NCBI GenBank assembly: GCA_049969675.1
Contig: JBMFOP010000072.1
Coordinates: 1-15,637, forward strand
Direction: 5' to 3'
Length of the DNA: 15,637 bases
From: Myxococcota bacterium
GTDB lineage: Bacteria; Myxococcota; SpSt-1050
Positions 1-15,401 of this stretch are shown piece by piece. The notes below the pieces were generated by a model. That model did no database searches, had not been told where the DNA came from, and worked only from the letters and a program-made list of their open reading frames with translations. The position numbers and the translations under genes were made by a program. Each line of letters begins with the position of its first letter. Position 1 is the first letter of the stretch.

Positions 1-512
1 CCTATGAAATTTATTCCTAAAAGTTGTGCTTCAAGTGCTGTGGTTCCACTGCCTGAAAAAGGGTCAAGGACAGTATCACCCTCTTTTAATCCTATAATGT
101 TTAGTAATGCTCTGATCATTTGAGGGTGAAATTTACCTTTATATGGGTAAATCCAGTGAGTTAGATACTGATTTACAGACCGAGTTCGATTTGTTTGTAT
201 AATCTGGAAATAATCTGTGAAATGCCCATCAACAGTTTTGTAATACGACCCTTTTCTTTTTATTCTTTCTATTAGTTCGTCTGATTTGTTGAGAATCTTA
301 AATTCTCTCAATCCATTTGTAACTTCAAAGTTGGCACCTAATGCCCTTAACTCCAATTCTGCTAAAGACAATTCGTAAATAAATTGAACATTATCCAATA
401 AAATCAAATCATGCCCCATATTTTCATTATCTATTTCATAAGCCCAGAATTGACTTTCTGCTCTTTCTATCATTATTTCACCTTTGTTTTTTAGTTTTTT
501 ATTCTCCATCAT
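1..512 (-). CDS. Amino-type (N4-cytosine/N6-adenine) DNA methyltransferase, 5' portion; continues past the left edge
   Basis: Not in the ORF track; translated by hand. Open frame from ATG 512 (GGGAG RBS at 521-525; alternative ATG 473 behind AGGTGA) reads MMENKKLKNKGEIMIERAESQFWAYE...SVNQYLTHWIYPYKGKFHPQMIRALLNIIGLKEGDTVLDPFSGSGTTALEAQLLGINFIG. HxxYPYKGKFHP followed by VLDPFSGSGTT matches motifs X and I (SAM binding) of amino-MTases. The catalytic (S/D/N)PPY motif would lie outside the window. Confidence 0.85.
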   Translation of the reverse strand, partial: MMENKKLKNKGEIMIERAESQFWAYEIDNENMGHDLILLDNVQFIYELSLAELELRALGANFEVTNGLREFKILNKSDELIERIKRKGSYYKTVDGHFTDYFQIIQTNRTRSVNQYLTHWIYPYKGKFHPQMIRALLNIIGLKEGDTVLDPFSGSGTTALEAQLLGINFI

Positions 513-688
513 TATTCTAACTCCCGTTTTACAATTAACTTAAAAATCTCCTCGAATGGATCCACTCCGGCATTTCCTAAAAGTTTTGTTGCCTTGTATT
601 TATCTTTGATCTGGCATCTGATATGAAATTTCCCATCCCGTTTTATAATCAAATTTTCTACATCTCCAATTTCTCTATTAAATTCCAC
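512..688 (-). CDS. Possible 58-aa small protein or 3' gene remnant
   Basis: GTG at 688 to TAA at 512-514: MEFNREIGDVENLIIKRDGKFHIRCQIKDKYKATKLLGNAGVDPFEEIFKLIVKRELE. It fills the whole gap, overlaps the upstream gene by 11 nt, and its stop overlaps the MTase start (TAATG). No clear RBS. Confidence 0.4.
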   Translation of the reverse strand: MEFNREIGDVENLIIKRDGKFHIRCQIKDKYKATKLLGNAGVDPFEEIFKLIVKRELE

Positions 689-1643
689 AGGAGCAGTAAC
701 CCATCACACAGTATTTCCCCCCACAATCCTGTTGAGTCTGACAGGAAGGTGGCTGACAATACTTATTTATAAGACCTCTACATTCCAGTCCCTGCTCACA
801 CTCAATTGTGTCTGTACACTGCTCACATAGTCCTTTTTTGGGACAATTGATTATACATTCACATCTCTGACTTCTGCAATATCCTCCACACTGTGGACAT
901 AATGTATTACAATCTTTGTCTTCCACACACTGTGGTTTAAATTCACATGTGTGAGTCTTCATATTACAGATATTTGACGGGTCTATCAACTGGCAGTCTT
1001 TGTCGGTATTACAGGCACCATCATTCAGTTCGCACTTTGCATCATTTGTACAGTGCTCCCATGCATTACAGGGAGGGTCACAGGTTATTTTAATACAGAT
1101 ACCGGATGAATCACATTTGGTTCCGAGCCCGGAGTTTACACAGTCTTTATCCTCCAGACACTCAACACATAATGGGTTTTCAAGTTTGGTATTGCAAAAT
1201 TTATTATCTGGCTTGGAGGCAGGTGGACAATCCTTATCTGTTATACAACCTTCAACACATTTATTATCCCGGCAGATAAATCCTAAATCACAGTCCGAAT
1301 TTTTCTGACAGGCCTTCTCGGCAAATTCACACTCCTTCTTATCATTGCATATTTCATTTGCCCCACAATCTTTATCGGTACGGCATTTTACACATACATT
1401 GTTTAGACAGAATGGCTTATCACTCGTGCAGTCCCTATCTGTCTCACAGTTGCCAACAATAACATCTTCTGAGGCGGTATCAGCAGGAACTACATCTGAG
1501 ACAACCACATCTGTCAAAGCATTCACATCTTTTAATTCAACATCTGGCAGATCAACATCAGAATTATACTCCTCAGTTGTAACTGCCAGATCACAGGATA
1601 GAACAGACAGGCTGATCAATAAGATTACTATTAACTTATTCAT
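678..1643 (-). CDS. Cysteine-rich repeat lipoprotein (321 aa)
   Basis: AGGAGG RBS upstream. Signal peptide with lipobox VLS-C17, then an acidic linker, then repeated four-Cys modules starting C-x2-D-x-D-C (CETDRDC, CRTDKDC, CITDKDC, CLEDKDC, CNTDKDC, CVEDKDC). 47 Cys by hand count; no CxxCH. Confidence 0.85.
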   Translation of the reverse strand: MNKLIVILLISLSVLSCDLAVTTEEYNSDVDLPDVELKDVNALTDVVVSDVVPADTASEDVIVGNCETDRDCTSDKPFCLNNVCVKCRTDKDCGANEICNDKKECEFAEKACQKNSDCDLGFICRDNKCVEGCITDKDCPPASKPDNKFCNTKLENPLCVECLEDKDCVNSGLGTKCDSSGICIKITCDPPCNAWEHCTNDAKCELNDGACNTDKDCQLIDPSNICNMKTHTCEFKPQCVEDKDCNTLCPQCGGYCRSQRCECIINCPKKGLCEQCTDTIECEQGLECRGLINKYCQPPSCQTQQDCGGKYCVMGYCSCGI

Positions 1644-1666
1644 AATAAAGACCTCCTACTTATACT

Positions 1667-3286
1667 TTATTTACAATAACCAAGTTGAGTCTCTCCACTC
1701 AATGAAGTACAGCTCTTGCCTGCTGGACACTTTGGACTATTATCAATCCTATCACAGGCATAGTAGCATTTATATCCACTCACACTATTCCCGAGACATA
1801 ATAGCCCCTTCTGACAATCATCATAAGTACAATCTCCACCGGCCGGCACCTTCCCTCCAAAATCGCAGATACTTGTATCTGAATCCAGTTCAAGACATAT
1901 AGAACCATCTTTGCAAAAGGCGTCACTAAAATGGTCACAGGATTCATAACAATATGCCTGACCATCTGGTGGTCCTGCACATATCAATCCCTCTTTACAA
2001 TAGTTGTAATTTCCTCCACAGGGCTGCTGTACATCCTGGGTTCCTTCACAGAATCCAGTAGCGCTATTGCAGACATACCCCGATGGACACTTCCTCCCCG
2101 GGTTATCACATCTGGGCCAGCAGACACTCTCATAGGAATTAATTGGATAACAGACATATTCACTCCTGCAATCAGAATTACTATTGCACTCTCTCAAACA
2201 CCATCTCTTGGTTGGATTGGATGCGACCTGCACACAAATACTATATACATTATTATCCCAGTCGTATGGACAGTTGTCAAAGCTGGTGCAGTCCTGTGAG
2301 CAGTAACCACCAACAAATCCGGTCCCTTCTGACTCCTGAATGCAGAACTGCCCTGAACTGCACTTAAAAGTTGAATTATCACAATTATCACCTATTGTAC
2401 CCGGTGCAATGGGATTACAGGTATAAGACTCTTTATTACAGGTTGAATTGGGGCATTGATAATCCTCTATACATTCCACACAGACACCAGACTGAGTCTC
2501 ACAATATTTATTCTTCGGATTTGACGCGCAATCATTATTATTAAAACAGATATTTGCCGATTCACACTTACCGTTTACACACTTCCCGCTACAGCAGTCT
2601 GTATCATACTGACACCCTCCCACACACGACTGTGTAGAACTGTTGCAGTACATATCACAGGGACAACCAGTCTCCAGACAACCTCTACCAGCATCAACAT
2701 ATATATCCTCAAAATTTGTATCCTGAACTGTTATATCTGTAATTTCTGCATCAGTCTGTCCACCATCAGGTCTGGCTCTCATACATATCCCAGTCTCTTC
2801 ATTACAGGTCATATTGTTTTCACAACCAATCGTCGCACATCCTACACAGACATTATTTCGGCAATATGGCTCTGGTATATCACAGTTAAAATCGGTCTCG
2901 CAGTATCTCCCAATACTTACATCCGCTGCGGCATCTATTATATCAAGACCTCCATCTCTTTGGGTCTTTATCTCGCAACTATGTGTCTTGAGATTACAAT
3001 AATATCCAGAGGGGCAGTTTGAATCACTCCTGCACCCGGAGGACGGATATTGACAGAATCCGCCAATGCACTTCATTGTGCTATCCGGGCAGTCCTCATC
3101 TGTCTTACACGCCTGAATATTCTCGGTCTGAATACATCTAAAATTTACACATCTGAATCCATTCTTGCAGTCGCTATCCATAGTACACTCATTCCCGGTA
3201 GAACCCTCTGAACAGGAGAGAGGAATCAAGATTGTAATGAAAGATGCCATTAACAAAGAGTAAATAAGGGGAGAAGGATATTTCAT
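1667..3286 (-). CDS. Cysteine-rich repeat lipoprotein (539 aa)
   Basis: The track start at 3382 runs through the promoter region. ATG 3286 has GAGGT 8 nt upstream and begins a signal peptide MKYPSPLIYSLLMASFITILIPLS-C (lipobox-like). Same Cys modules as its neighbour, with DGG/DAG acidic linkers. 71 Cys by hand count; no CxxCH. Confidence 0.85.
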   Translation of the reverse strand: MKYPSPLIYSLLMASFITILIPLSCSEGSTGNECTMDSDCKNGFRCVNFRCIQTENIQACKTDEDCPDSTMKCIGGFCQYPSSGCRSDSNCPSGYYCNLKTHSCEIKTQRDGGLDIIDAAADVSIGRYCETDFNCDIPEPYCRNNVCVGCATIGCENNMTCNEETGICMRARPDGGQTDAEITDITVQDTNFEDIYVDAGRGCLETGCPCDMYCNSSTQSCVGGCQYDTDCCSGKCVNGKCESANICFNNNDCASNPKNKYCETQSGVCVECIEDYQCPNSTCNKESYTCNPIAPGTIGDNCDNSTFKCSSGQFCIQESEGTGFVGGYCSQDCTSFDNCPYDWDNNVYSICVQVASNPTKRWCLRECNSNSDCRSEYVCYPINSYESVCWPRCDNPGRKCPSGYVCNSATGFCEGTQDVQQPCGGNYNYCKEGLICAGPPDGQAYCYESCDHFSDAFCKDGSICLELDSDTSICDFGGKVPAGGDCTYDDCQKGLLCLGNSVSGYKCYYACDRIDNSPKCPAGKSCTSLSGETQLGYCK

Positions 3287-3321
3287 ATTGCAATACCTCA
3301 GCACTATAATTAAGCGGAGGT

Positions 3322-3349
3322 ATAATATCACATAAGTATTTTCTTGCAA
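3322..3349 (-). promoter_or_regulatory. Candidate sigma70 promoter for the lipoprotein genes
   Basis: Minus strand reads TTGCAA-N16-TATTAT with TGn directly before the -10 (extended -10), about 35 nt upstream of ATG 3286. Confidence 0.45.
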
Positions 3350-3372
3350 ATATAAAATTTTTGAAATATATT
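3344..3372 (+). promoter_or_regulatory. Candidate sigma70 promoter for tRNA-Pro/rlmD
   Basis: TTGCAA (3344-3349)-N17-TATATT (3367-3372), ending 13 nt before the tRNA 5' end. Confidence 0.55.
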
Positions 3373-3385
3373 GGTTCTCCACTAT

Positions 3386-3461
3386 CGGGGCGTAGCGCAG
3401 CCTGGTTTAGCGCGCTTGCCTTGGGAGCAAGAGGTCGGTGGTTCAAATCCACTCGCCCCGA
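3386..3461 (+). tRNA. tRNA-Pro (anticodon TGG); CCA not encoded
   Basis: Folds by hand: acceptor stem CGGGGCG/CGCCCCG plus discriminator A, D stem GCGC/GCGC, anticodon stem CTTGC/GCAAG with loop CT-TGG-GA, T arm GGTGG-TTCAAAT-CCACT. C1-G72/A73 fits bacterial Pro identity. Followed by TTT rather than CCA. Confidence 0.97.
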
Positions 3462-3518
3462 TTTATAAAGATTAAAAATCTTACAATCTCCATACATAAT
3501 TCAATTTTAGAGGTTATC

Positions 3519-4661
3519 TTGAAGGAAAATGATATAAAAATTAGCAAGATGGTTCATCGGGGACTGGGGCTCGGACATAAAAATGGGAGAACTTATATGA
3601 TATATAATACACTCCCCGATGAGGTAGTGGATGCAGAGATAATTATGACCAAAAAGTCATACTCCATCGGGAGGGCAATAAAAATTAAAGAGCGGTCACC
3701 CTTCAGAGTTGAGCCAGTCTGTAAATACTATCAGATATGTGGTGGCTGTCAGTATATGCACGCCCAATATCAATTTCAGATTGAGTTGAAACAGAATGTC
3801 CTATATGAGTTACTCAGCAGGTCTCTGAAAAGAGAGACAATAGAAATTAAGAGAACCCCATCTATTTTAGACCTCAACTATAGACTGAGGGCACAGTTTA
3901 TTGTAAGAGGGGCAAAGGTGGGCTTTACTGGATTCGGTTCAAATGACTTTGTCCGAATTGATGAATGTAAGATCTGTCACGGGAAGATAAATGAGGCGGT
4001 AGAGATATTAAATAGGAATATCAGTACAGTAGAACTGAATCGTCTGTTTGTCGCAACAGATGGAGAGAGGATAAAGACATATCCGATAAAGGATTTTAGA
4101 GAGAATCTTGAGATTATGGTAAACAACCTTAAATATGTAATCAAGCCAGAGATATTCTTTCAGGCAAATATATATACATTAAGCGAATTACAGAGAGCTG
4201 TAAAGCCTCTTGAAAAGGGGATATCTGCTGTGGACTTTTATGCTGGAAGTGGATTTTTTAGTCTTTATATGGCAAAGTTCTTTGAATATCTCCTCTGTAT
4301 AGAAGAGGTAAGTGAGGCATCAAATCTATTGAAGAGGAATGCATCAATCAATAAAATTGAGAATATTGAGATTATCAATTCCTCTGTAGAAAATGCGGAG
4401 ATACCAAAAAAATACAATTCTATTGATTTGCTCTTACTTGACCCACCAAGGTCCGGGATGTCTAAAAGGGCTATAGGAAGGGCATTGAATCTAAATCCAA
4501 AAAATATCTTTTATGTAAGCTGTGACCCTGCCACCCTTGCAAGGGATATTTCATATTTTCACAAAAACTTCTATGAGATCTCGGAGATCATTATGATTGA
4601 CCAATTCCCACACACATTTCACTTTGAGACAGTTGTTAAGATGAGGAGACAATATTTATAA
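3519..4661 (+). CDS. rlmD: RlmD/RumA-family RNA (uracil-C5)-methyltransferase with TRAM domain and [4Fe-4S] motif
   Basis: N-terminal TRAM-like segment; CKYYQICGGCQY plus a distal Cys; FFQAN, DFYAGSG, DPPRSG, YVSCDPATLARD (catalytic Cys), DQFPHTFHFE. The track start at 3438 lies inside the tRNA, so TTG 3519 after AGAGGT is preferred (380 aa). Exact RNA target not determinable from sequence. Confidence 0.9.
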   Translation: MKENDIKISKMVHRGLGLGHKNGRTYMIYNTLPDEVVDAEIIMTKKSYSIGRAIKIKERSPFRVEPVCKYYQICGGCQYMHAQYQFQIELKQNVLYELLSRSLKRETIEIKRTPSILDLNYRLRAQFIVRGAKVGFTGFGSNDFVRIDECKICHGKINEAVEILNRNISTVELNRLFVATDGERIKTYPIKDFRENLEIMVNNLKYVIKPEIFFQANIYTLSELQRAVKPLEKGISAVDFYAGSGFFSLYMAKFFEYLLCIEEVSEASNLLKRNASINKIENIEIINSSVENAEIPKKYNSIDLLLLDPPRSGMSKRAIGRALNLNPKNIFYVSCDPATLARDISYFHKNFYEISEIIMIDQFPHTFHFETVVKMRRQYL

Positions 4662-5131: not shown

Positions 5132-5160
5132 CGGAATACCTTATGGGGTGAGTGTGGTCT

Positions 5161-5535
5161 ATGTATGACTTTCTTATAATTTTGATTTTTGTAGTTATAT
5201 CTATTGGTTTTGTCTTTGTGGCACTCTTTTTAGGCAGGTTTGTAAGACCATCTGTTGTAGATAAAGAGAAGGTTACCACCTATGAGTGTGGCGAGAGACC
5301 ATTTTCAAAGGCCTGGTTCAATTATAATCCCAGATTTTATATATTTGCCCTGATATTTATTGTCTTTGATGTGGCAATTGCGGCGGCGCTTCCATCTTTT
5401 GTAACATTTAAGTATTTTATATTGCAAAACGATTATCAAAATATATTGATTTCGCTCTTTGCGTTTCTTACAATTTTGATGGTGGCGCTATTTTATGTCT
5501 GGATAAAAGGAGATCTGGATTGGATAAAGAAGTAG
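5161..5535 (+). CDS. nuoA: Complex I subunit A
   Basis: Three hydrophobic helices; K..TYECGERP loop; [22 protein letters not shown]-terminus. ATG 5161 after GGGGTGA preferred over GTG 5152. Confidence 0.95.
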
Positions 5536-6098
5536 GAAAGAATGGTTCATCAGATACAGCCGGTTCAAATGAAAATGAACTGTATCGTGAGGATTTCGGT
5601 GGTGGGTTCTTATTGCTCTCAAAGTTGAGTTCCCTTATCAATCTACCGAGGGCAAATTCGCTCTGGTATCTCTTATTCTCACCTGCCTGTTGTGGGATAG
5701 AGCTTATGCAGGCCGGAGGTACAAGGACAGATATGGATAGATTCGGTATGGTCTTCAGGTCAACCCCAAGACAGGCAGATGTGATGATTGTGGGTGGTAC
5801 AGTTACATATAAGATGGCTGAGAGGGTAAAGTTGCTTTATCAACAGATGTCAGAGCCCAAATATGTGATATCAATGGGCTCCTGCTCAAACTGCGGTGGA
5901 CTCTTTGATAGGAGTTACTCTGTACTAAAAGGTGTTGACCTCATTATTCCAGTTGATATCTATATACCCGGCTGTCCTCCAAGACCCGAGGCGCTTCTGG
6001 ATGGGCTTATGCTTTTGCAAAAGAAGATAAAGAGGGAGGATTGGGGGAGGATAGTCAAAAGACATACCTCAAGGATAGATGAATATGAACATAAGTGA
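5520..6098 (+). CDS. nuoB: Complex I subunit B (N2 cluster)
   Basis: Tandem-Cys [34 protein letters not shown] start 7 nt after AAGGAG. Confidence 0.95.
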
Positions 6099-6579
6099 GG
6101 TTTATACGGAGGTAAAGAAGTTCTTCCCTGAGAAACTCTCAGAGGTAATTACATCCGGTCAGCTGACATTTTTCTATTTTGACAGAGATATTATTAAAGA
6201 CCTCTTTCTGGTCCTGAGAGATAAGATTGGTATGGAGTTCAAGCATCTATCATATATTGCGTCTGTGGATTTGAAAGATAGATTTGAATTGGTCTATTGC
6301 CTTTATAGTTATAGGTGGAATAGCATTATCCATCTCAAGACAAGACTTCCGAGAGATAATCCCGTCGTCTCGAGTATAGCAGATTTATATGTCTCGGCAG
6401 AGTGGCACGAGAGGGAGGCATACGACCTGATGGGGATTCTATTTGAAGGGCATCCGGACCTCAGAAGGATAATGATGCCAGATGACTTTGAAGGACATCC
6501 GTTGAGAAAGGACTTTTCTGAGAGGGATAATTACCACGGGATGCCGACGAGTCGTGAGAAGATATTGGGGAAATATTGA
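6079..6579 (+). CDS. nuoC: Complex I subunit C
   Basis: [40 protein letters not shown] signature. The start may be ATG 6085. Confidence 0.95.
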
Positions 6580-7721
6580 TGACGCTTGAAGAGAGATTAA
6601 ATCAGGTTAAGAGAGAGAATGAGATCCTGCTCAATATGGGTCCGCAGCACCCATCCACACATGGGGTTATTAGATTTATCATACGTGCTGATGGGGAGAT
6701 TATGGTGGAGGCACTCCCTGTGGTAGGATATCTGCATAGGGGGATTGAGAAGCTTGCTGAGATGACGCCGTATACAGGGTTTATTCCCTATACCGATAGA
6801 GTGGATTATCTGGCTGCAATGTTTGCAAATCATGCATTTGTAATGGGGGTGGAGAGGCTGCTCGGTATTGAGGTGCCGAAACGGGCTGAATATCTGAGAG
6901 TGATTGCATGTGAACTGAACAGAATTGCCAGCCATCTGATAGCATTGGGTTCAATGGCTATGGATATAGGTGCATTTACACCATTTTTGCACGGTTTGAG
7001 AGAGCGGGAATTGATAAATGATATTATGGAGATGCTCTGTGGGGCGAGACTCACCTACAACTATATGAGGATCGGTGGTGTCTCAAATGATATTGACGAT
7101 AAGATAATAAGGAAGATAAATGACTTTCTGAATAGATTCTATCCCGGTTTTATTGAGGAGTTCAACAGACTTATTACCAACAATGAAATTTTGGTAAAGA
7201 GGTGTATTAATATTGCAACCATCTCATCAGAGGAGGCAATCAATTTTGGACTTGTAGGACCAAACCTGAGGGCGTCCGGGGTAAAGTGGGATTTGCGGAA
7301 AAATATGCCCTATTCTGTATACCCTGAATTCAAATTTGATATCCCTGTTGGGAAGGGATTTAGAGGTGAGCTCGGCGATAGTTATGATAGATTTGTGGTA
7401 AGAGTGATGGAGATGGAGGAGAGCGCAAAGATATTGAGGCAGGCAATATCAGCTCTCCCCGAGGGTGAGATAATGGCAAAGGTGCCGAGGAGGATTAAAC
7501 CACCGGCTGGTGAGGTCTACTCGGCGGTAGAGAGTGCGCGGGGTGAACTCGGGTATTATATCATTTCGGACGGGACCGAGAACCCTTATAGATGTAAGAT
7601 TCGGACGGGCTCCTTCTCGGCTATGAAGGCAATTCATATTAAATCGCAGGGGTGCTTTATTGCAGACCTTGTGGTGCTTATAGCAAGTATGGATATTGTG
7701 GCACCGGAGATTGATAGATAA
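6579..7721 (+). CDS. nuoD: Complex I subunit D (quinone-reducing)
   Basis: [43 protein letters not shown] and C-terminal EIDR. No NiFe CxxC motifs. ATG 6579 overlaps the nuoC stop (TGATG). Confidence 0.96.
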
Positions 7722-8926
7722 TGTTTGAGTTGACTTCAAAATTGTTGGATTATTCAGGCATATCATCAGATTATTTTGTAATATTGCTTGTAGTCATCTT
7801 TTTCATCTATGGATTGATTGCTCTCACATTCGGTTCGCTCTTTGCCGGTGTCACAAGCTGGTATGAGAGGAGAATCGCCGGCAGGATGCAGAGCAGAATT
7901 GGTCCAAACAGAGTAGGTTTTCAGGGGTTCTGGCAGTGGCTTGCAGACGGACTTAAGTGCTGGTTCAAAGAGGATATAATCCCATTAAATGCCGATTCCG
8001 TTCTCTTTAGAATTGCACCATACCTTGTCTTTACCGGTGTTCTTGCTACATTTGTTGTCCTGCCATTCTCACCGTCCTTTGTAGGCTCTGATATGAATGT
8101 AGGCGTAGTATATCTGATTGCAATTACCGCACTTGTAGTGGCTGGAATACTTATGGCTGGTTGGGCAAGTAATTCCAAGTGGACACTTCTGGGTGGTATA
8201 AGGTCTGCGGCTCAGATGATTTCCTATGAGATACCTGTTGCGCTATCTCTCATATCCGTCATAATCCCAGCAGGGACTCTCTCCCTTCAGAAGATCATTC
8301 AGTCTCAGGGTGGGGCTCCATATAATTGGTATATCTTTCACAATCCGGGCACATTTATTGCCTTCTTTATATATTTTACATCTGCACTTGCAGAGGGGAA
8401 CAGGACACCATTTGACCTCCCGGAGGCGGAGAGTGAACTGGTCTCAGGTTATAATACAGAGTATTCGGGTATGAGATTCCTCTTTTTCTTATTTGCTGAA
8501 TGGATGAATCTCTATGTAATAGGGGCAATTGCAACGGCAATATTCCTCGGTGGTTGGAGAGTTCCGGGTATATCCTATGAGGTTCAACTCTCAAGTATAT
8601 GGCTTGAGCTTCTGGGGTTTGCAATATTCCTGTTTAAGGCACTTATTCTTGTAAATGTCATTATCTGGCTCAGATGGACACTCCCGAGACTCAGAATAGA
8701 CCAGTTAATGATTATGTGTTACAAGTATCTGATTCCTATAAGCGTCTTGATGATAATTATTTCAACACTTTTTACATTGATATTTTATGCAATTCCAATT
8801 TTGGGATTGGGCACAAGGATAATATTGTTTTTATTGAGTCTTGTAATCTTTGCATATTTTGTGCATAGAGTTTATTACAATATCAGATATTTCCCGGATA
8901 AGGCATATTTTAAGTGGATGATATGA
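7721..8926 (+). CDS. nuoH: Complex I subunit H
   Basis: ERRIAGRMQSRIGPNRVG, ADGLK..KED, AQMISYE, NRTPFDLPEAESELVSGYNTEYSG, RWTLPRLRIDQL. Starts in a TAATG overlap with nuoD. Confidence 0.96.
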   Translation: MFELTSKLLDYSGISSDYFVILLVVIFFIYGLIALTFGSLFAGVTSWYERRIAGRMQSRIGPNRVGFQGFWQWLADGLKCWFKEDIIPLNADSVLFRIAPYLVFTGVLATFVVLPFSPSFVGSDMNVGVVYLIAITALVVAGILMAGWASNSKWTLLGGIRSAAQMISYEIPVALSLISVIIPAGTLSLQKIIQSQGGAPYNWYIFHNPGTFIAFFIYFTSALAEGNRTPFDLPEAESELVSGYNTEYSGMRFLFFLFAEWMNLYVIGAIATAIFLGGWRVPGISYEVQLSSIWLELLGFAIFLFKALILVNVIIWLRWTLPRLRIDQLMIMCYKYLIPISVLMIIISTLFTLIFYAIPILGLGTRIILFLLSLVIFAYFVHRVYYNIRYFPDKAYFKWMI

Positions 8927-9501
8927 TGGAGATTAGAGAGTACCTTTCAAATATCAGAAATTCTGTGGTCTCAATATTTGAGGGGATGGCTGTCACATTC
9001 TCGTGGATGTTCAGGCGTCCGCATACCGTCCAGTATCCCGATAAAATTGAGAAGGATAAGGAACTTATTCAGAATAGATTTAGAGGGCTTCTGGAGGTAG
9101 ATTTGAGTATCTGTACAGGGTGCCTCGCCTGTCAGCGGGCATGCCCGATTGGTGTAATTATGATTGAGGTGAGCAGGGGGACTGAGAGATATATCACCAG
9201 ATTTGATATAGATGCAGGTAAATGTATGTATTGTGGACTCTGTACAGAGAGTTGCCCGACTGGAGCAATCAGACATACGAAGGAGTTTGCATTTTCAACC
9301 TATGACATCAGGAAACTAATTTTGCACTATGTAAATGAACCTGTAAAGCCATATAAACCTCAGAAGGAGACAGTTCTGAATCTTGAGAATTCGGGGAAGT
9401 TTGTGGCTGAGATAGTAAAGGGGCGTGAGAGTGAATATAAGAGATATATCGTACCACAATTGAATCTGGAAGATAGTTCAGGGTCAAAGGAGAAGGTTTA
9501 A
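8923..9501 (+). CDS. nuoI: Complex I subunit I (2x[4Fe-4S])
   Basis: TVQYP..RFRG, CTGCLACQRACP and CMYCGLCTESCP. ATG 8923 forms an ATGA overlap with the nuoH stop. Confidence 0.95.
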   Translation: MMEIREYLSNIRNSVVSIFEGMAVTFSWMFRRPHTVQYPDKIEKDKELIQNRFRGLLEVDLSICTGCLACQRACPIGVIMIEVSRGTERYITRFDIDAGKCMYCGLCTESCPTGAIRHTKEFAFSTYDIRKLILHYVNEPVKPYKPQKETVLNLENSGKFVAEIVKGRESEYKRYIVPQLNLEDSSGSKEKV

Positions 9502-9502
9502 T

Positions 9503-10003
9503 ATGCCTCTCTTCAAGTTGTTATTCTATATCATATCACTTGGGATAATAGGGCTTGCATTCATTACTGCGATATCAAAGAATATTGTCAGGTCTGTCTT
9601 TGCCCTCTTAGGGGTTATGATAGGTGTTGCCTGCCTCTATGGAATTCTGGGTTCAAGCTATCTTGCAGTGATTCAGATAATGATATATGTGGGCGGCATA
9701 ATGGTCTTATTTATCTTTGCGGTGATGTTTACATCTAAAATTGAGGATGTAAATGTCACCAATCGTTCACTGGGGAAGATTCAGGCCGTAATCATTAGCC
9801 TTGCAATATTTATAGTGCTTGCATTTATTATTCTCACTTATCCATTTGAAAAGGGTGCAGTTTCAGAACACCAGAGTATAGAGAGAATCGGAAAGGTTAT
9901 CTCTACCGACTATCTGCCATTTTTAATCGGGATTGCGGTGATACTCCTTGTCTCGCTCATCGGGGCGATAACAATTGCAAGGCCTAAAAAGGAGAGTGAG
10001 TGA
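9503..10003 (+). CDS. nuoJ: Complex I subunit J
   Basis: Five hydrophobic segments; QIMIYVGGIMVLFIFAVM motif; canonical position in the operon. Confidence 0.95.
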   Translation: MPLFKLLFYIISLGIIGLAFITAISKNIVRSVFALLGVMIGVACLYGILGSSYLAVIQIMIYVGGIMVLFIFAVMFTSKIEDVNVTNRSLGKIQAVIISLAIFIVLAFIILTYPFEKGAVSEHQSIERIGKVISTDYLPFLIGIAVILLVSLIGAITIARPKKESE

Positions 10004-10004
10004 T

Positions 10005-10313
10005 ATGGAACTAAATCTACAGGAGATATTGCTGGTTGCGGCATTCCTATTCTCAACAGGTATATTTATCATTCTCACTAGACAGAATGCAATTGCCATC
10101 CTTATGGGGGTGGAACTGATACTCAATTCGGTAAATATAAATTTTGTGGCATTTGATAGATTCCTCTTTGAGAGGATAGATGGGAATATCGCCGCTATTG
10201 TCAATATTATGCTTGCCGCTTCAGAGGTGGCGGTTGCGCTGGCGATAGTTATAAGTATATTTAGAGGTCTTAAGACCATTGAGGCAGATAAACTTGATTC
10301 ACTTAGAGGCTGA
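10005..10313 (+). CDS. nuoK: Complex I subunit K
   Basis: LMGVELILNS and AASEVAVALA carry both conserved Glu. ATG 10005, 1 nt after the nuoJ stop, is preferred over TTG 9975. Confidence 0.95.
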   Translation: MELNLQEILLVAAFLFSTGIFIILTRQNAIAILMGVELILNSVNINFVAFDRFLFERIDGNIAAIVNIMLAASEVAVALAIVISIFRGLKTIEADKLDSLRG

Positions 10314-10314
10314 T

Positions 10315-12396
10315 ATGGAGAATCTACTACTATTGATACTGATTCTTCCACTTTCTGGGGCGTTGATTAATGGGACAATTGGATATTTCATACAGAAGAG
10401 ATATGGAGGTGAGACAAACGGTATAATAGCAACATCCACAATCTCGCTCTCGTTTTTGGTTTCGCTCTATCTCTTTATTGAATTACAGGGCATAAAACCT
10501 CTGGATAGACAAATAATTCTCAATCTATACAACTGGATATTTGCAGGGAGTATCTCTTTTGATTTTGAACTGGTAATGGATCCCCTCTCTGCTGTGATGA
10601 TGCTCGTGGTCAGTGGTGTGGGTTCGCTAATTCATATATACTCTATTGGATATATGCACAACGATAAGAGCCAGTGGAGGTATTTTGCCTATCTAAATCT
10701 CTTTGCGTTTTCAATGCTCTTACTGGTGATGGCTAACAATCTGCTACTTATGTTTGTTGGATGGGAGGGGGTAGGACTCTGTTCATATCTATTGATAGGA
10801 TTCTGGTATCAGGAGCTGGATAAGGCATCTGCGGGGATGAAGGCATTCATTACAAATAGAATAGGAGACTTTGGTTTTTTAATAGGGCTCTTCTTCTTAA
10901 TATGGGGAATAAATGAGAGTCAGGAGAGCCATTCTGTAATCTCTCTCTCTTTTTCACACCTAAAAGAGATCTCCGAATCACTTGCGGATGTCAATTTTCA
11001 TAATATTGCCCTCCCAACCATCGTAGGGCTCCTCTTCTTCGTTGGGGCGACAGGGAAGTCTGCACAGCTCCCACTGTATGTCTGGCTCCCCGATGCAATG
11101 GCAGGTCCCACTCCAGTCTCTGCACTGATTCATGCAGCGACGATGGTAACTGCTGGGGTATATATGATTGCGAGGCTAAATTTTATCTATGTGCACTCTC
11201 CGGTTGCACTGACAGTGGTCGCCCTTGTGGGTGCGATTACCGCCCTTTATGCCGCCACAATGGGTTTTGCACAGACAGATATAAAGAAGGTCCTTGCATA
11301 CTCAACTATCTCACAACTCGGATTTATGTTTGCAGCAGTCGGTTCTGCAGCATTTGTCGCCGGAATCTTCCATCTTATGACACACGCATTTTTCAAGGCC
11401 TGCCTCTTTTTGGGGGCTGGCTCTGTTATTCATGCAATGAGTGGTGAACAGGATATCAGAAAGATGGGTGGCTTGAAAGATAAGATACCTATAACTTATT
11501 ACACATTTCTCATAGCCTCACTTGCGATCGCTGGTCTGCCCGGGTTATCCGGATTCTTCTCAAAGGATGAGATCTTATACAGGTCATTTATGAGTGGAGA
11601 TGGCTTCGCCGGGGCCGCTGGCTATATTGTCTTTGTACTCCTTTTAATCGCCGCACTATGCACGGCATTTTATATGTTCAGGCTGGTATTTATTACCTTC
11701 TATGGAGGTGAGATTCGCTCTGATGAGAAGGTAGTTCATCATATCCACGAATCACCGAAGACGATGACAGTGGTTCTTATTGCACTTGCATTCCTATCCA
11801 TTATAGGCGGTTATATTGGGCTTCCAGAGATATTTGGAGTTCATTCTGCCTTGGAGGAATTTCTGTCTCCCATATTTGAGGAGTCGTCTAAGAGATTGAA
11901 TATCCCTGCTTCTCATAGCGCGGAATGGATTATAATGTTACTCTCAATAACTGCCGCTGTAATGGGAATCTTTGCTGCATATAAAATTTATTACAAAAAT
12001 GGATATGAGGGTGCAAGGCCAATAAGAGAGAGAATCATGAAGATACACTACATCGTTGAAAACAAATATTTTGTGGATGAGATTTATAATTTGATGGTGA
12101 TTGAGCCAGCGAAGGTTCTCTCATACCTTTTATCACTCTTTGATAGATATATAATTGACGGGATTGTAAATCTCTTCGGAAGGGTAACAGTAATCTTTTC
12201 CAACTTTGACGGAATAATTGATAAATATGTGGTGGATGGTCTGGTCAATCTCGTGGCTCAGGGGATTAAGTTTATAGGTGATAGATGCCGCACACTTCAG
12301 ACCGGAAGAATACAGGATTATGTCTATATAATGGTAACAGGAGGATTTTTGGGTATAATCATACTCAGAATATTTAACTACTTTATAGGGAAATAA
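10315..12396 (+). CDS. nuoL: Complex I antiporter-like subunit L with extended lateral helix (693 aa)
   Basis: GWEGVGLCSYLLIGFW, NRIGD, GKSAQLPLYVWLPDAMAGPTPVSALIHAATMV, DIKKVLAYST, GFFSKD, LQTG. ATG 10315 after GAGG. Confidence 0.96.
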   Translation: MENLLLLILILPLSGALINGTIGYFIQKRYGGETNGIIATSTISLSFLVSLYLFIELQGIKPLDRQIILNLYNWIFAGSISFDFELVMDPLSAVMMLVVSGVGSLIHIYSIGYMHNDKSQWRYFAYLNLFAFSMLLLVMANNLLLMFVGWEGVGLCSYLLIGFWYQELDKASAGMKAFITNRIGDFGFLIGLFFLIWGINESQESHSVISLSFSHLKEISESLADVNFHNIALPTIVGLLFFVGATGKSAQLPLYVWLPDAMAGPTPVSALIHAATMVTAGVYMIARLNFIYVHSPVALTVVALVGAITALYAATMGFAQTDIKKVLAYSTISQLGFMFAAVGSAAFVAGIFHLMTHAFFKACLFLGAGSVIHAMSGEQDIRKMGGLKDKIPITYYTFLIASLAIAGLPGLSGFFSKDEILYRSFMSGDGFAGAAGYIVFVLLLIAALCTAFYMFRLVFITFYGGEIRSDEKVVHHIHESPKTMTVVLIALAFLSIIGGYIGLPEIFGVHSALEEFLSPIFEESSKRLNIPASHSAEWIIMLLSITAAVMGIFAAYKIYYKNGYEGARPIRERIMKIHYIVENKYFVDEIYNLMVIEPAKVLSYLLSLFDRYIIDGIVNLFGRVTVIFSNFDGIIDKYVVDGLVNLVAQGIKFIGDRCRTLQTGRIQDYVYIMVTGGFLGIIILRIFNYFIGK
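12142..12297 (+). repeat. Diverged 78-bp (26-codon) tandem repeat within the NuoL amphipathic helix
   Basis: DRYIIDGIVNL starts at 12142 and DKYVVDGLVNL at 12220. DNA GATAGATATATAATTGACGGGATTGTAAATCTC vs GATAAATATGTGGTGGATGGTCTGGTCAATCTC. Confidence 0.85.
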
Positions 12397-12405
12397 GAGG
12401 TAAAT

Positions 12406-13929
12406 ATGGACTTTATTTTATCACACATCCTGACACTGATGACATTTATCCCTTTGATTGGGATGGTGCCTGTCGCCCTTATCCCTTCCAGATATCCGCA
12501 ATATATCAAATACCTTTCTGTGGGGATAAGTGCGGTGGTCTTTCTCCTCTCTCTACTTATGTATGCATACTTTGATAGGGAGAGCACTCAGCTTCAATTT
12601 GTTGAGCACTATGTGTGGATAAGGGCATTTAATATTGAGTACTTTATGGGGGTTGATGGACTTAATGTATCGCTCGTAATTCTGACTGCGCTGATATCCC
12701 TTATTGCCTGCATTGCCTCTCTCGGGATTGAGAAGAAGGTAAAGGGATATTTTGCGATGTTTTTGCTTTTGATGACTGGTATGATGGGGACATTTGTGGC
12801 ACTTGACCTCTTCCTGTTTTATATATTCTGGGAGGTAATGCTACTCCCTATGTACTTTCTGATAGGGATCTGGGGTGGACCACGGAAGGAATATGCAGCC
12901 ATAAAGTTCTTCCTGTATACGCTGTTTGGTTCGGTGTTGATGCTGATCGGTATTATTGCATTGTATTATAATTCTGAACCCACCACTCTTGTGGATGGAA
13001 CTTCAGCATCGCACACATTTAATATAATGAAGCTCACCTTTGAAAATAACTTTTCAAATAAGGCACCTCTGCTCGGAATCTCATTTGCAAAGTTTGTATT
13101 TGTCCTCTTCTTTATAGGATTTGCGATAAAGATACCGATGTTTCCATTTCACACATGGCTGCCGGATGCACATGTTGAAGCGCCCACACCGATATCTGTT
13201 ATACTTGCAGGGATACTCCTTAAGATGGGCATATACGGAATTTTGAGAGTCAACTACCAGATTCTGCCCGAGGCTACTCTCTGGTCCGCACCGGTCGTTG
13301 CAATCTTCGGAGTTATTAATATTGTATATGCGGCATTTGTGTGTATGGCTCAGGAGGATTTAAAGAAGTTGATAGCGTATTCATCTGTAAGTCATATGGG
13401 ATTTTCTCTTCTGGCTATGAGCTCATTCTCAGAGGCGGGGATCTCAGGCGCAGTGCTGCAACTCTTTACCCACGGTGTTATCTCCCCGATGCTCTTCCTG
13501 ATTGCAGGTGTAATCTACGACAGGGCACATCACAGAGAGATCAATAAGTTTGGAGGGCTTGCCAATATTATGCCAGAGTATTCGGCATTTACGGGGCTTG
13601 CATTTATGGCATCGCTCGGGCTCCCCGGACTTGCTGGCTTTGTAGCAGAGGCACTCTGTTTTATTGGGGCATTCTCTACATATAAATTAATGACGGTAAT
13701 CGCAGCGACCAGCGTGGTAATAACTGCTGCATATTATCTCTGGACGATGCAGAGAGTCTTTTTAGGACCCATAAACCCCCGATATCTCGGCTACAAAGAC
13801 CTGAATTTAAGGGAGAGATTTACTCTCTATCCGCTTGCACTTATCATTGTGGTTCTTGGAGTATATCCCATGTTAATCCTTGATATAATAAATCCAACGA
13901 TTTTCCAGTTGATTCACTCCATCAGGTAG
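12406..13929 (+). CDS. nuoM: Complex I antiporter-like subunit M
   Basis: FYIFWE, KFFLYT, IKIPMFPFHTWLPDAHVEAPT, LLKMG, DLKKLIAYSS, GFVAE; GAGGT RBS. Confidence 0.96.
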   Translation: MDFILSHILTLMTFIPLIGMVPVALIPSRYPQYIKYLSVGISAVVFLLSLLMYAYFDRESTQLQFVEHYVWIRAFNIEYFMGVDGLNVSLVILTALISLIACIASLGIEKKVKGYFAMFLLLMTGMMGTFVALDLFLFYIFWEVMLLPMYFLIGIWGGPRKEYAAIKFFLYTLFGSVLMLIGIIALYYNSEPTTLVDGTSASHTFNIMKLTFENNFSNKAPLLGISFAKFVFVLFFIGFAIKIPMFPFHTWLPDAHVEAPTPISVILAGILLKMGIYGILRVNYQILPEATLWSAPVVAIFGVINIVYAAFVCMAQEDLKKLIAYSSVSHMGFSLLAMSSFSEAGISGAVLQLFTHGVISPMLFLIAGVIYDRAHHREINKFGGLANIMPEYSAFTGLAFMASLGLPGLAGFVAEALCFIGAFSTYKLMTVIAATSVVITAAYYLWTMQRVFLGPINPRYLGYKDLNLRERFTLYPLALIIVVLGVYPMLILDIINPTIFQLIHSIR

Positions 13930-13943
13930 AGGGGTATTGTGCT

Positions 13944-15401
13944 ATGCTGAATCATCTCCTCCCATATCTTCCAGAACTTATAGCATTTGTATCAGGGATC
14001 ATATTGCTATTTATATTTTCCATAAAAAGATTTAGTTTTGATGTCATCTCCTCAATCTCATTTCTGGTACTTATATTTATTCTTATTATCTCTGTAATAT
14101 CTTCGCCAGAGGATGTTATCAGTTCTTCTCATCTCTTCTCGGTAAGCAGTTTCTCAATATTTTTCAGGATAGTAATCATCCTCTCTATTATTCTGACATT
14201 CTTATTCTCCAGCAGGGCACGAGAACTTCCAGATAGAGTGGCACAGGAATATTCACTGATGTTGTTCCTGTTTTTTATTGCAGCATCATTTATGGTTATG
14301 GCAGAGAATCTGCTTGCACTTTATATCTCAATGGAGATACTCTCTCTCATATCCTATGTCTGTGTCTCTTTTGATCTTGAACGGAGTCGCTCACAGGAGG
14401 CCGGAATTAAGTATGCAATATATGGTGCAGTTGCCTCTTCATTAATGCTATTCGGTATTTCATATATTTATGGAATTACAGGTAGCCTGAACTATTCTGA
14501 AATTTCTACAAAGCTCTCTTCATTGAACATAAATAATGAACCTGTCTACCTTATGATACTCATTGTAACCCTGATGATTTTTGGCGGTCTCTTTTTTAAG
14601 CTGGCTGCATTTCCATTCTATGCGTGGTCTCCTGATGCCTATGAGGGAGGACCAACTCCATTTGTGGCACTCTTATCAGTCGGTTCAAAGGCAGCGGCTC
14701 TCGGTGCCCTTATCAAGGTAATGACATCCATCTTTGTAAAGTCCTCACACTTCTCTCAGGATAATGTGGTAATAATCCTGGGGGTCGTCTCCATACTTAC
14801 AATGACTCTCGGCAATCTGATGGCAATTAACCAGAATAACTTAAAGAGACTTCTTGCCTACTCTTCTATTGCACACGCTGGATATATGATTATGGCTCTA
14901 TCAGCGGCTGATACCAATGCAATAAATGCAGTAAAATTCTATATTGTTGCATATCTCCTGATGAACCTTGGTGCATTTTACTGTGTACAGACGCTCGCAG
15001 ATAGGACTGGAACAGAGGACATAGAAGTCTTCAATGGTCTATCCAGTCGCAGCCCTTATCTCGCGGGGATGTTCACCATATTCTTACTTTCTCTTACTGG
15101 CATACCACCGTTTGTTGGCTTTGTAGGGAAATTTTATTTATTTGCAGTTATAATAAATAAAGGTGGCGGATTCTACTATATTCTGGCAATTATCGGGGTC
15201 TTAAATTCAGCCATTTCACTCTACTATTATGCACGGATTATAAGGGTTATGTATCTGATTGAAGGGAGCGATGAAACATTTGTATTTGACTCTGTGAGAA
15301 GATATACTCTCGGTATTCTCGGTATTGCCACAGTTCTATTCGGTGTATATTTCTCACCCATTTTGAGATTCATAGAGCACTTCAACGGGATTTTGAGATA
15401 G
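13944..15401 (+). CDS. nuoN: Complex I antiporter-like subunit N
   Basis: MEILS, EAGIKY, FKLAAFPFYAWSPDAYEGGPTP, KRLLAYSSIAHAGY, GIPPFVGFVGKF, YYYARII. Confidence 0.96.
   Translation: MLNHLLPYLPELIAFVSGIILLFIFSIKRFSFDVISSISFLVLIFILIISVISSPEDVISSSHLFSVSSFSIFFRIVIILSIILTFLFSSRARELPDRVAQEYSLMLFLFFIAASFMVMAENLLALYISMEILSLISYVCVSFDLERSRSQEAGIKYAIYGAVASSLMLFGISYIYGITGSLNYSEISTKLSSLNINNEPVYLMILIVTLMIFGGLFFKLAAFPFYAWSPDAYEGGPTPFVALLSVGSKAAALGALIKVMTSIFVKSSHFSQDNVVIILGVVSILTMTLGNLMAINQNNLKRLLAYSSIAHAGYMIMALSAADTNAINAVKFYIVAYLLMNLGAFYCVQTLADRTGTEDIEVFNGLSSRSPYLAGMFTIFLLSLTGIPPFVGFVGKFYLFAVIINKGGGFYYILAIIGVLNSAISLYYYARIIRVMYLIEGSDETFVFDSVRRYTLGILGIATVLFGVYFSPILRFIEHFNGILR

Follow-up and report, generated by a model that had tools for sequence, protein, structure and literature searches.

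The stretch analyzed here (the window) comprises 15,637 nucleotides (nt) of a Myxococcota bacterium (assembly GCA_049969675.1, contig JBMFOP010000072.1) and is the entire contig C72 of a 3.05-Mb genome (188 contigs, 99.9% complete). Open reading frames (ORFs), NCBIfam models, and tblastn searches identified a complex I operon in the order nuoABCDHIJKLMN. This is an 11-subunit complex I, with nuoA-D and nuoH-N present and nuoEFG not in the operon, and it combines a lengthened lateral helix in NuoL with a single nuoM gene. Among the families shown, its L, M, and N proteins exceeded only the Nuo cut-offs and not those of Mrp antiporters or membrane-bound hydrogenases. A second complex I, with E, F, and G, is encoded on contigs C4 and C7 of the same genome. 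The features of the window operon are as follows.

5152..10313, forward strand: nuoA, B, C, D, H, I, J, and K, with no nuoE, F, or G and hence no NADH-input module (ORFs; NCBIfam for D, H, J, and K; tblastn for A, B, C, and I, against the other complex I of the genome)
10315..12396, forward strand: nuoL, 693 amino acids (aa), the distal antiporter-like subunit with the lengthened lateral helix (TIGR01974, 708.8 bits)
12061..12093, forward strand: helix motif 1 of NuoL, residues 583-593 with Asp588, an Asp invariant in alignments A1 and A3
12142..12219, forward strand: module A, 26 residues (610-635) with Asp610 and Asp615, putative docking site of a distal NuoM copy
12220..12297, forward strand: module B, 26 residues (636-661) with Asp636 and Asp641, putative docking site of a NuoN-adjacent NuoM copy
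12298..12390, forward strand: QTG motif and last transmembrane (TM) helix of NuoL, residues 662-692 (predicted helix 666-692)
12397..12405, forward strand: 9-nt nuoL-nuoM spacer with a Shine-Dalgarno-like GAGGT (duplex energy, -7.1 kcal/mol), likely an independent nuoM start site
12406..13929, forward strand: nuoM, 507 aa, a single gene (TIGR01972, 574.2 bits)
13930..13943, forward strand: 14-nt nuoM-nuoN spacer with its own Shine-Dalgarno-like site
13944..15401, forward strand: nuoN, 485 aa, the final gene of the operon (TIGR01770, 368.2 bits)

As the initial annotation of this DNA had noticed, three copies of one motif begin at nt 12061, 12142, and 12220 (NuoL residues 583, 610, and 636) with spacings of 27 and 26 residues. 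QTG begins at residue 662, and the span of 75 residues given earlier from Asp588 to Gln662 was reproduced as 74 steps, or 75 residues inclusive. The same span is 50 in the second NuoL of the genome and, read from alignments, 47 in Thermus Nqo12 (4he8_L; about 48 in the initial annotation), 48 in 6hum_F, and 50 in Paracoccus 8qby_L. Canonical three-pump enzymes (E. coli 3rko, Thermus 4he8, Paracoccus 8qby, and cyanobacterial NDH-1 6hum) share with the window NuoL its fold, motif 1, a module, a QTG-like anchor, and the last helix, but they possess one module only (span, 47-50) where the window NuoL has two, and the single module of the solved structures aligns to module A and to module B alike. 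We take motif 1 to dock on NuoL itself, a helix module to be the NuoM contact, as in the E. coli structure, and QTG with the last TM helix to be the anchor that normally docks at NuoN; we also take E. coli NuoL residues 564-566 to map onto the helix motif. These three residues are the closest to NuoM in E. coli (Belevich 2011; PMC3274701).

An AlphaFold2 model of NuoL (48-sequence alignment, chain folded alone; mean predicted local distance difference test [pLDDT] score, 86.5) predicted a lateral helix that is unbroken from residue 585 to 661 and is followed by the last TM helix, with block pLDDT values of about 63-85 along it. Foldseek returned NuoL/ND5 chains as the best matches of the model (TM-score about 0.76). 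Among 24 PDB chain matches, none spanned the long helix as one significant stretch. Spans across 161 NuoL proteins from fetched loci were bimodal, with 86 at 48-51 and 57 at 73-75 (five other values, three of them script miscalls, and 13 uncalled), so the long span of the window NuoL is not due to chance.

Lengthening of this kind characterizes 2M complex I, whose cluster contains two nuoM genes (Chadwick, Hemp, Fischer, and Orphan 2018, ISME J 12:2668, as cited in PMC9040806, PMC6606698, PMC7117926, PMC7419157, and PMC12342949). Its insertion of about 26 residues is present in the window NuoL (74 versus 48-51), and true 2M loci have spans of 73 (L159 and L160) or 74 (L260, L267, L274, and L280), which bears out the 2M-type length assigned earlier; alignment with canonical and 2M NuoL sets likewise gave a long helix, at 74 versus 47-51 and 73-74. 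The two systems are also alike in having no nuoEF in the operon. The window operon, in contrast, contains one nuoM. The gaps reported for nuoL-nuoM (9 nt) and nuoM-nuoN (14 nt) were reproduced, and no antiporter gene follows nuoN, after which only 236 nt remain in the window; in two same-genus genomes holding the same operon, the ORFs after nuoN are unrelated. The true 2M operons of the phylum are L159:8965-15594 and L160 (genomes G117 and G102), and the other four are Nitrospira-type loci with the order BCDGIJK-L-M-M(-N), which matches the description for Nitrospira (PMC6606698). Two further candidates for true 2M operons were rejected: G041 contig C8, which is an Mrp-like cluster, and G042 contig C17, which looks misassembled.

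The combination of a long helix with one nuoM is real and common. Among 56 long NuoL proteins without a second nuoM (one miscall corrected), 47 were followed by M-N, one by M at a contig end, and eight had no adjoining M. In an even sample of the phylum, the long-helix profile matched over its full length in 36 of 91 genomes and true 2M operons occurred in two. A metagenome scan, the search for which was biased to long helices, yielded 80 loci, of which 73 were of the one-nuoM type or cut short, four were true 2M, one had three modules with one M, and two were uncalled; the 73 consisted of 46 with M-N called, 21 ending in or after M, five with nothing after L, and one miscalled. Named hosts of long-helix NuoL include Acidobacteriota and Binatia. 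All long one-nuoM-type operons with a visible D-H junction lacked nuoE, F, and G (45/45 and 29/29), whereas 55 of 61 short operons carried them. Excluded from the counts were L006 and L056 (frameshifted), L060, L131, and L135 (other insert types), and, in the junction counts, 13 near-duplicates.

The window locus is therefore an ordinary member of a widespread operon type, and the rarity implied by the initial annotation was overrated, since the combination is common and already partly published (Yu et al. 2022; PMC9040806). Yu et al. described the helix insertion in two clusters of canonical gene content (Complex_I_1 and Complex_I_2) in Ca. Manganitrophaceae and suggested that both clusters either accept extra pumps already or are in transition; in the accessible text of that paper, one gene supplying two copies is not proposed and the breadth of the combination is not given. 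Those genomes also encode a five-pump complex that might lend subunits, whereas the window genome does not. Our literature search, whose reach excluded most subscription literature, turned up no publication in which a single nuoM was suggested to yield two copies.

Both helix modules look used, since their Asp pairs are kept more often than those in the single module of short NuoL. In the thinned span-74 set, neither Asp was lost from module A or from module B in any of 37 sequences; in metagenome sequences the two Asp were kept in 58/59 and 59/59 for module A and both in 59/59 for module B, compared with 15/19 and 16/19 for the two Asp of the short form (span, 49). The QTG anchor of 41 thinned long sequences was similarly constant (Gln, 98%; Gly, 100%), and proline occurred within the inserted stretch in two of 108 long helices. 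For the 108 long helices that do not come from two-nuoM loci, the 10-residue cores of modules A and B were on average 60% identical (some source loci being cut before nuoN), whereas core identity between modules was 0-20% in six true 2M loci from two lineages. At the sequence level, module symmetry thus follows gene number, with modules alike in one-nuoM and diverged in 2M loci. Two modules that bind one and the same protein should stay alike, while modules that bind two different proteins should diverge.

The first option raised by the initial annotation was that the single nuoM of the operon supplies two copies of its product, forming a cryptic four-pump L-M-M-N complex. On balance, we lean towards this reading, which gains indirect support from helix length, module symmetry, and gene junctions. 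The window complex differs from 2M complex I in gene number yet probably works like it. Its NuoM keeps all of the residues that we take to serve pumping (Glu143, Lys242, Lys273, and Glu415) and those that we take to bind the helix (Lys167, His249, and Tyr325), as compiled in our residue table, and the pumping Glu and Lys residues are present in both NuoM and NuoN. In the true 2M pairs (two loci), the Glu on TM12 is kept in both NuoM proteins and there is no Arg on TM6; an M-M interface accordingly needs no residue that the window NuoM lacks. When NuoM and NuoN were screened for residues specific to long operons, a small number of conservative substitutions emerged, with nothing that clearly marks an interface.

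The main rival to an L-M-M-N complex is an ordinary three-pump L1M1N1 enzyme. Its added module would have arisen by an ancient duplication and been retained as a brace, either looping out, resting on the membrane, or contacting lipid or some unrelated partner. This is the simplest reading of the gene content, but we consider it rather unlikely. A dispensable bulge should drift, whereas the span stays at 74-75 across phyla and the Asp pairs are nearly invariant. The 56 long NuoL proteins from genome loci had spans of 74 (51 sequences) or 75 (five) at total lengths of 674 to 1318 aa; among the 80 metagenome loci, 76 had spans of 74-75, one of 76, and one of 100, with two uncalled; and the top 150 representatives comprised 135 at 74-75, nine at 100-152, and six uncalled, two of which have extra modules. 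Length classes of the helix differ by increments of 26 residues. A brace would also not account for modules that resemble each other where there is one nuoM but differ in 2M operons, and the AlphaFold2 model contains no helix break there, albeit in a single chain with pLDDT of about 63-85. The same constancy fits badly with another option raised earlier, a passing intermediate before gain or after loss of a second M, because the arrangement is ancient, occurs in several phyla, and shows strong conservation.

Gene junctions provided a further line of evidence. Cells generally synthesize the subunits of a complex in amounts that match its stoichiometry. Spacers occur at only two junctions of the window operon, L-M (+9 nt) and M-N (+14 nt); the other eight, A-B through K-L, lie between -16 and +1 nt. 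The genome's second operon has -1 at both L-M and M-N. An L-M gap of ≤8 nt was found in 0 of 35 long operons versus 55 of 79 short ones, as well as in six of seven short 11-subunit operons and both 2M operons of the phylum. The long operons had K-L junctions of ≤8 nt in 25 of 37 cases, and each of their other junctions up to K-L was this tight in about half to two thirds of operons. The L-M difference recurred within the 29 genomes holding both operon types (0/29 long versus 20/29 short), and the M-N junction in genomes of this kind gave 4/27 versus 25/27. Gene overlap has been associated with coupled translation of complex subunits (PMC10666635). Among the start regions of L, M, and N in the window, that of nuoM is the least structured (-2.5 versus -4.3 and -9.5), and a comparison for lower structure at the nuoM start gave p 0.0005, which we do not count separately since the presence of a spacer already entails it. 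Start sites were picked by a rule favoring near and strong sites, and their pattern is suggestive only as support for doubled nuoM translation.

Several observations weigh against two NuoM copies. The metagenome set gave weaker junction contrasts (L-M ≤8 nt in 13/64 and ≤3 nt in 7/64; M-N ≤3 nt in 24/46), and the four Nitrospira-type 2M loci also have a spaced L-M junction (23-30 nt), so spacing is not specific. Gaps of up to +10 nt, which would cover the 9 nt of the window, have been counted as possibly coupled (Huber 2023). Published messenger RNA (mRNA) levels of two one-nuoM Manganitrophus operons gave M/L ratios of 0.69 and 0.87; with no nuoM mRNA in excess, which also favors the three-pump brace, any doubling would have to be translational. 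The codon bias of nuoM was not raised (p 0.62). The 2M side of the symmetry comparison rests on two lineages, and the sequences are kin, so p-values are overstated. E. coli P564ins6, a 6-residue insert at the NuoM contact, retains 78-88% of its activity and pumping (PMC3274701), in line with a tolerated brace. Rare NuoL helices with three to five modules (spans of 100-152 in the top 150 representatives; L295; L131) likewise speak for a brace, as a strict ruler would require up to seven pumps for them. Given two modules, unequal crossing-over alone yields multiples of 26. The multi-module helices cut both ways: their unit is fixed, yet five modules are hard to fill with pumps. Two inserts of other kinds also favor the brace, namely a polar insert of about 17 residues in L060, which resembles a genuine loop, and a duplication of about 30 residues that arose independently in L135:7325-9295 (G042), a one-nuoM operon with E, F, and G.

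The multi-module helices differ in setting. Proteins P0001, P0002, P0003, P0022, and P0038 and metagenome locus L295 have three to five modules at exact 26-residue spacing, and L295 combines three modules and one nuoM with a very strong nuoM ribosome site (-11.6). L131:6347-8569 (G041 contig C8) is a NuoL-like gene with five 27-residue helix repeats, several of them near-identical, located between an MrpD-like gene and one nuoM. Small Mrp-like genes and a sulfate-transporter-like gene lie in the same cluster, as does a gene for a soluble protein of 1000 aa that resembles DUF2309/DabA. The clusters L161 and L162 (G023 contig C223 and G009 contig C104) carry three NuoM-like genes alongside a NuoL-like gene that is divergent and whose helix holds a long insert without repeats.

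A fourth pump could also come from another locus, either as the NuoM of the second complex I or as an antiporter-like subunit of the Mrp or hydrogenase type; we regard this as improbable. The genome contains exactly six antiporter-like genes (tblastn; Pfam PF00361 at E≤1), namely L, M, and N of the two complexes I, with no orphan nuoM, nuoN, or mrpD gene in these searches and no Mrp-type gene in the Pfam PF00361 search. Among the matches listed for 24 genomes (21 weaker matches lying outside the list), no unpaired nuoM was found, and each listed nuoM above the cut-off belonged to an intact or fragmented L-M-N set. These results give no support to an orphan gene as the source, an option in the initial annotation. 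Borrowing from another complex became less likely. In its favor, 31 of the 36 long-helix genomes of the phylum sample have a further nuoM above the cut-off, as does the window genome (C7; 41% identity), and in some genomes L, M, and N of the long system are scattered; these scattered systems, however, still have one M per L. Four genomes (G100, G105, G110, and G123; incomplete assemblies, 90-97% complete) showed no second complex I in three family searches but do carry Mrp- or hydrogenase-type genes. Since these four lack a second complex I and the window genome lacks an Mrp-type gene, no single borrowed partner fits all. Two different partners should, moreover, make the modules diverge, as in true 2M loci.

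Scattering of this kind characterizes one family (L174-L179, L199-L203, and L211-L215), in which nuoM stands alone, mostly just upstream of an atpD-like gene, while nuoL and nuoN lie elsewhere, nuoL bearing insertions hundreds of residues long. The stand-alone nuoM genes of ten genomes, which at first resembled orphans, proved to be parts of scattered long-helix systems.

Phylogenetic trees (subsets of 113 L, 102-105 M, and 91-92 N, then 50 N) revealed that long helices occupy dispersed positions in the NuoL core tree, form two groups on the NuoM tree, and form nearly one group on the NuoN tree. This closer tracking of NuoN would fit a complex in which NuoN is doubled (L-M-N-N) or the last helix docks beyond NuoN, which we nonetheless judge very improbable: module B shares its consensus with module A and with the NuoM-type module found in short NuoL, neither the QTG anchor nor its 21-residue offset has changed, and long operons do not have a stronger nuoN start site (mean, -6.3 versus -6.6). 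A quick IQ-TREE phylogeny of 50 NuoN sequences grouped both 2M lineages and three short 11-subunit operons with 16 long one-nuoM operons (Shimodaira-Hasegawa-like approximate likelihood ratio test [SH-aLRT], 94), with weak deeper forks and an outgroup that was not clean; the NuoN of both 2M lineages thus falls among long-helix operons.

Within each 2M locus, the two NuoM proteins fall in separate parts of the tree. In both 2M lineages (L159/L160 and the Nitrospira-type loci) the proximal NuoM lacks the TM7 Lys, whereas the window NuoM keeps every pumping residue. The missing lysine questions normal pumping by the fourth subunit of 2M complexes. 2M complex I, with two nuoM genes and diverged modules, also contrasts with the window complex, with one nuoM and similar modules. 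The three short one-nuoM operons have a 2M-proximal-type NuoM and a span of 48 where called, so helix length follows pump number in that branch; they fit a putative loss of one pump and one module. Six short-helix 11-subunit operons (L187, L188, L189, L190, L191, and L134) have as their only NuoM one without the TM7 lysine that groups with the 2M proximal NuoM. Acidobacterial-type long NuoL cores (L014, L016, L017, L018, L028, and L136) group with same-phylum short NuoL cores, which suggests recombination between paralogous operons that spared the helix.

An evolutionary scenario that we put forward only tentatively is that bacteria have long and commonly possessed a four-pump complex I encoded by three antiporter genes, with a helix ruler that counts identical NuoM copies, and that the "convergent" 2M operons represent later takeovers of one existing slot by a different nuoM. 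If so, the repeated origin of 2M complexes would be explained, and these operons would offer a natural test of adding pump modules to complex I.

In the proposed L-M-M-N mechanism, the NuoL helix would offer four grips in a row (L, M, M, and N). Each module would grip one NuoM, identical NuoM copies would stack head to tail, and the NuoN anchor would halt the stack at two, such that the helix acts as a predicted ruler of NuoM copy number. The single nuoM would be translated at about twice the rate. The fourth pump could raise the yield towards five protons per two electrons; five protons is a hypothesis even for true 2M complexes, according to citing papers including PMC9040806 and PMC6606698. 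Because there is no NADH module, electrons probably arrive from a low-potential carrier, for example ferredoxin, or else a borrowed input module may serve. The greater potential difference between such a carrier and quinone could cover the cost of a fifth proton, or the enzyme may run in reverse.

Proton yields are assigned to complex I on the basis of gene counts, and two slots served by one nuoM would be missed by annotation. The genome screen for long helices with a single nuoM suggested at the outset found many, and if two copies are indeed made, numerous myxobacterial relatives, acidobacteria, and other lineages would have a higher-yield or reverse-running enzyme (36 versus 2 of 91 genomes in the phylum sample), while helices with three to five modules might mark still longer membrane arms. 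Many cells hold a long and a short operon together, which supplies a built-in control.

Upstream of the operon, the window contains two ORFs resembling cysteine-rich repeat lipoproteins (321 and 571 aa; 678-3382, minus strand), a type that we take to be common in myxobacteria. An RlmD-type 23S rRNA methyltransferase is located at 3438-4661 (plus strand), and the start of a DNA-methyltransferase-like ORF at 3-512 (minus strand) is interrupted by the contig end.

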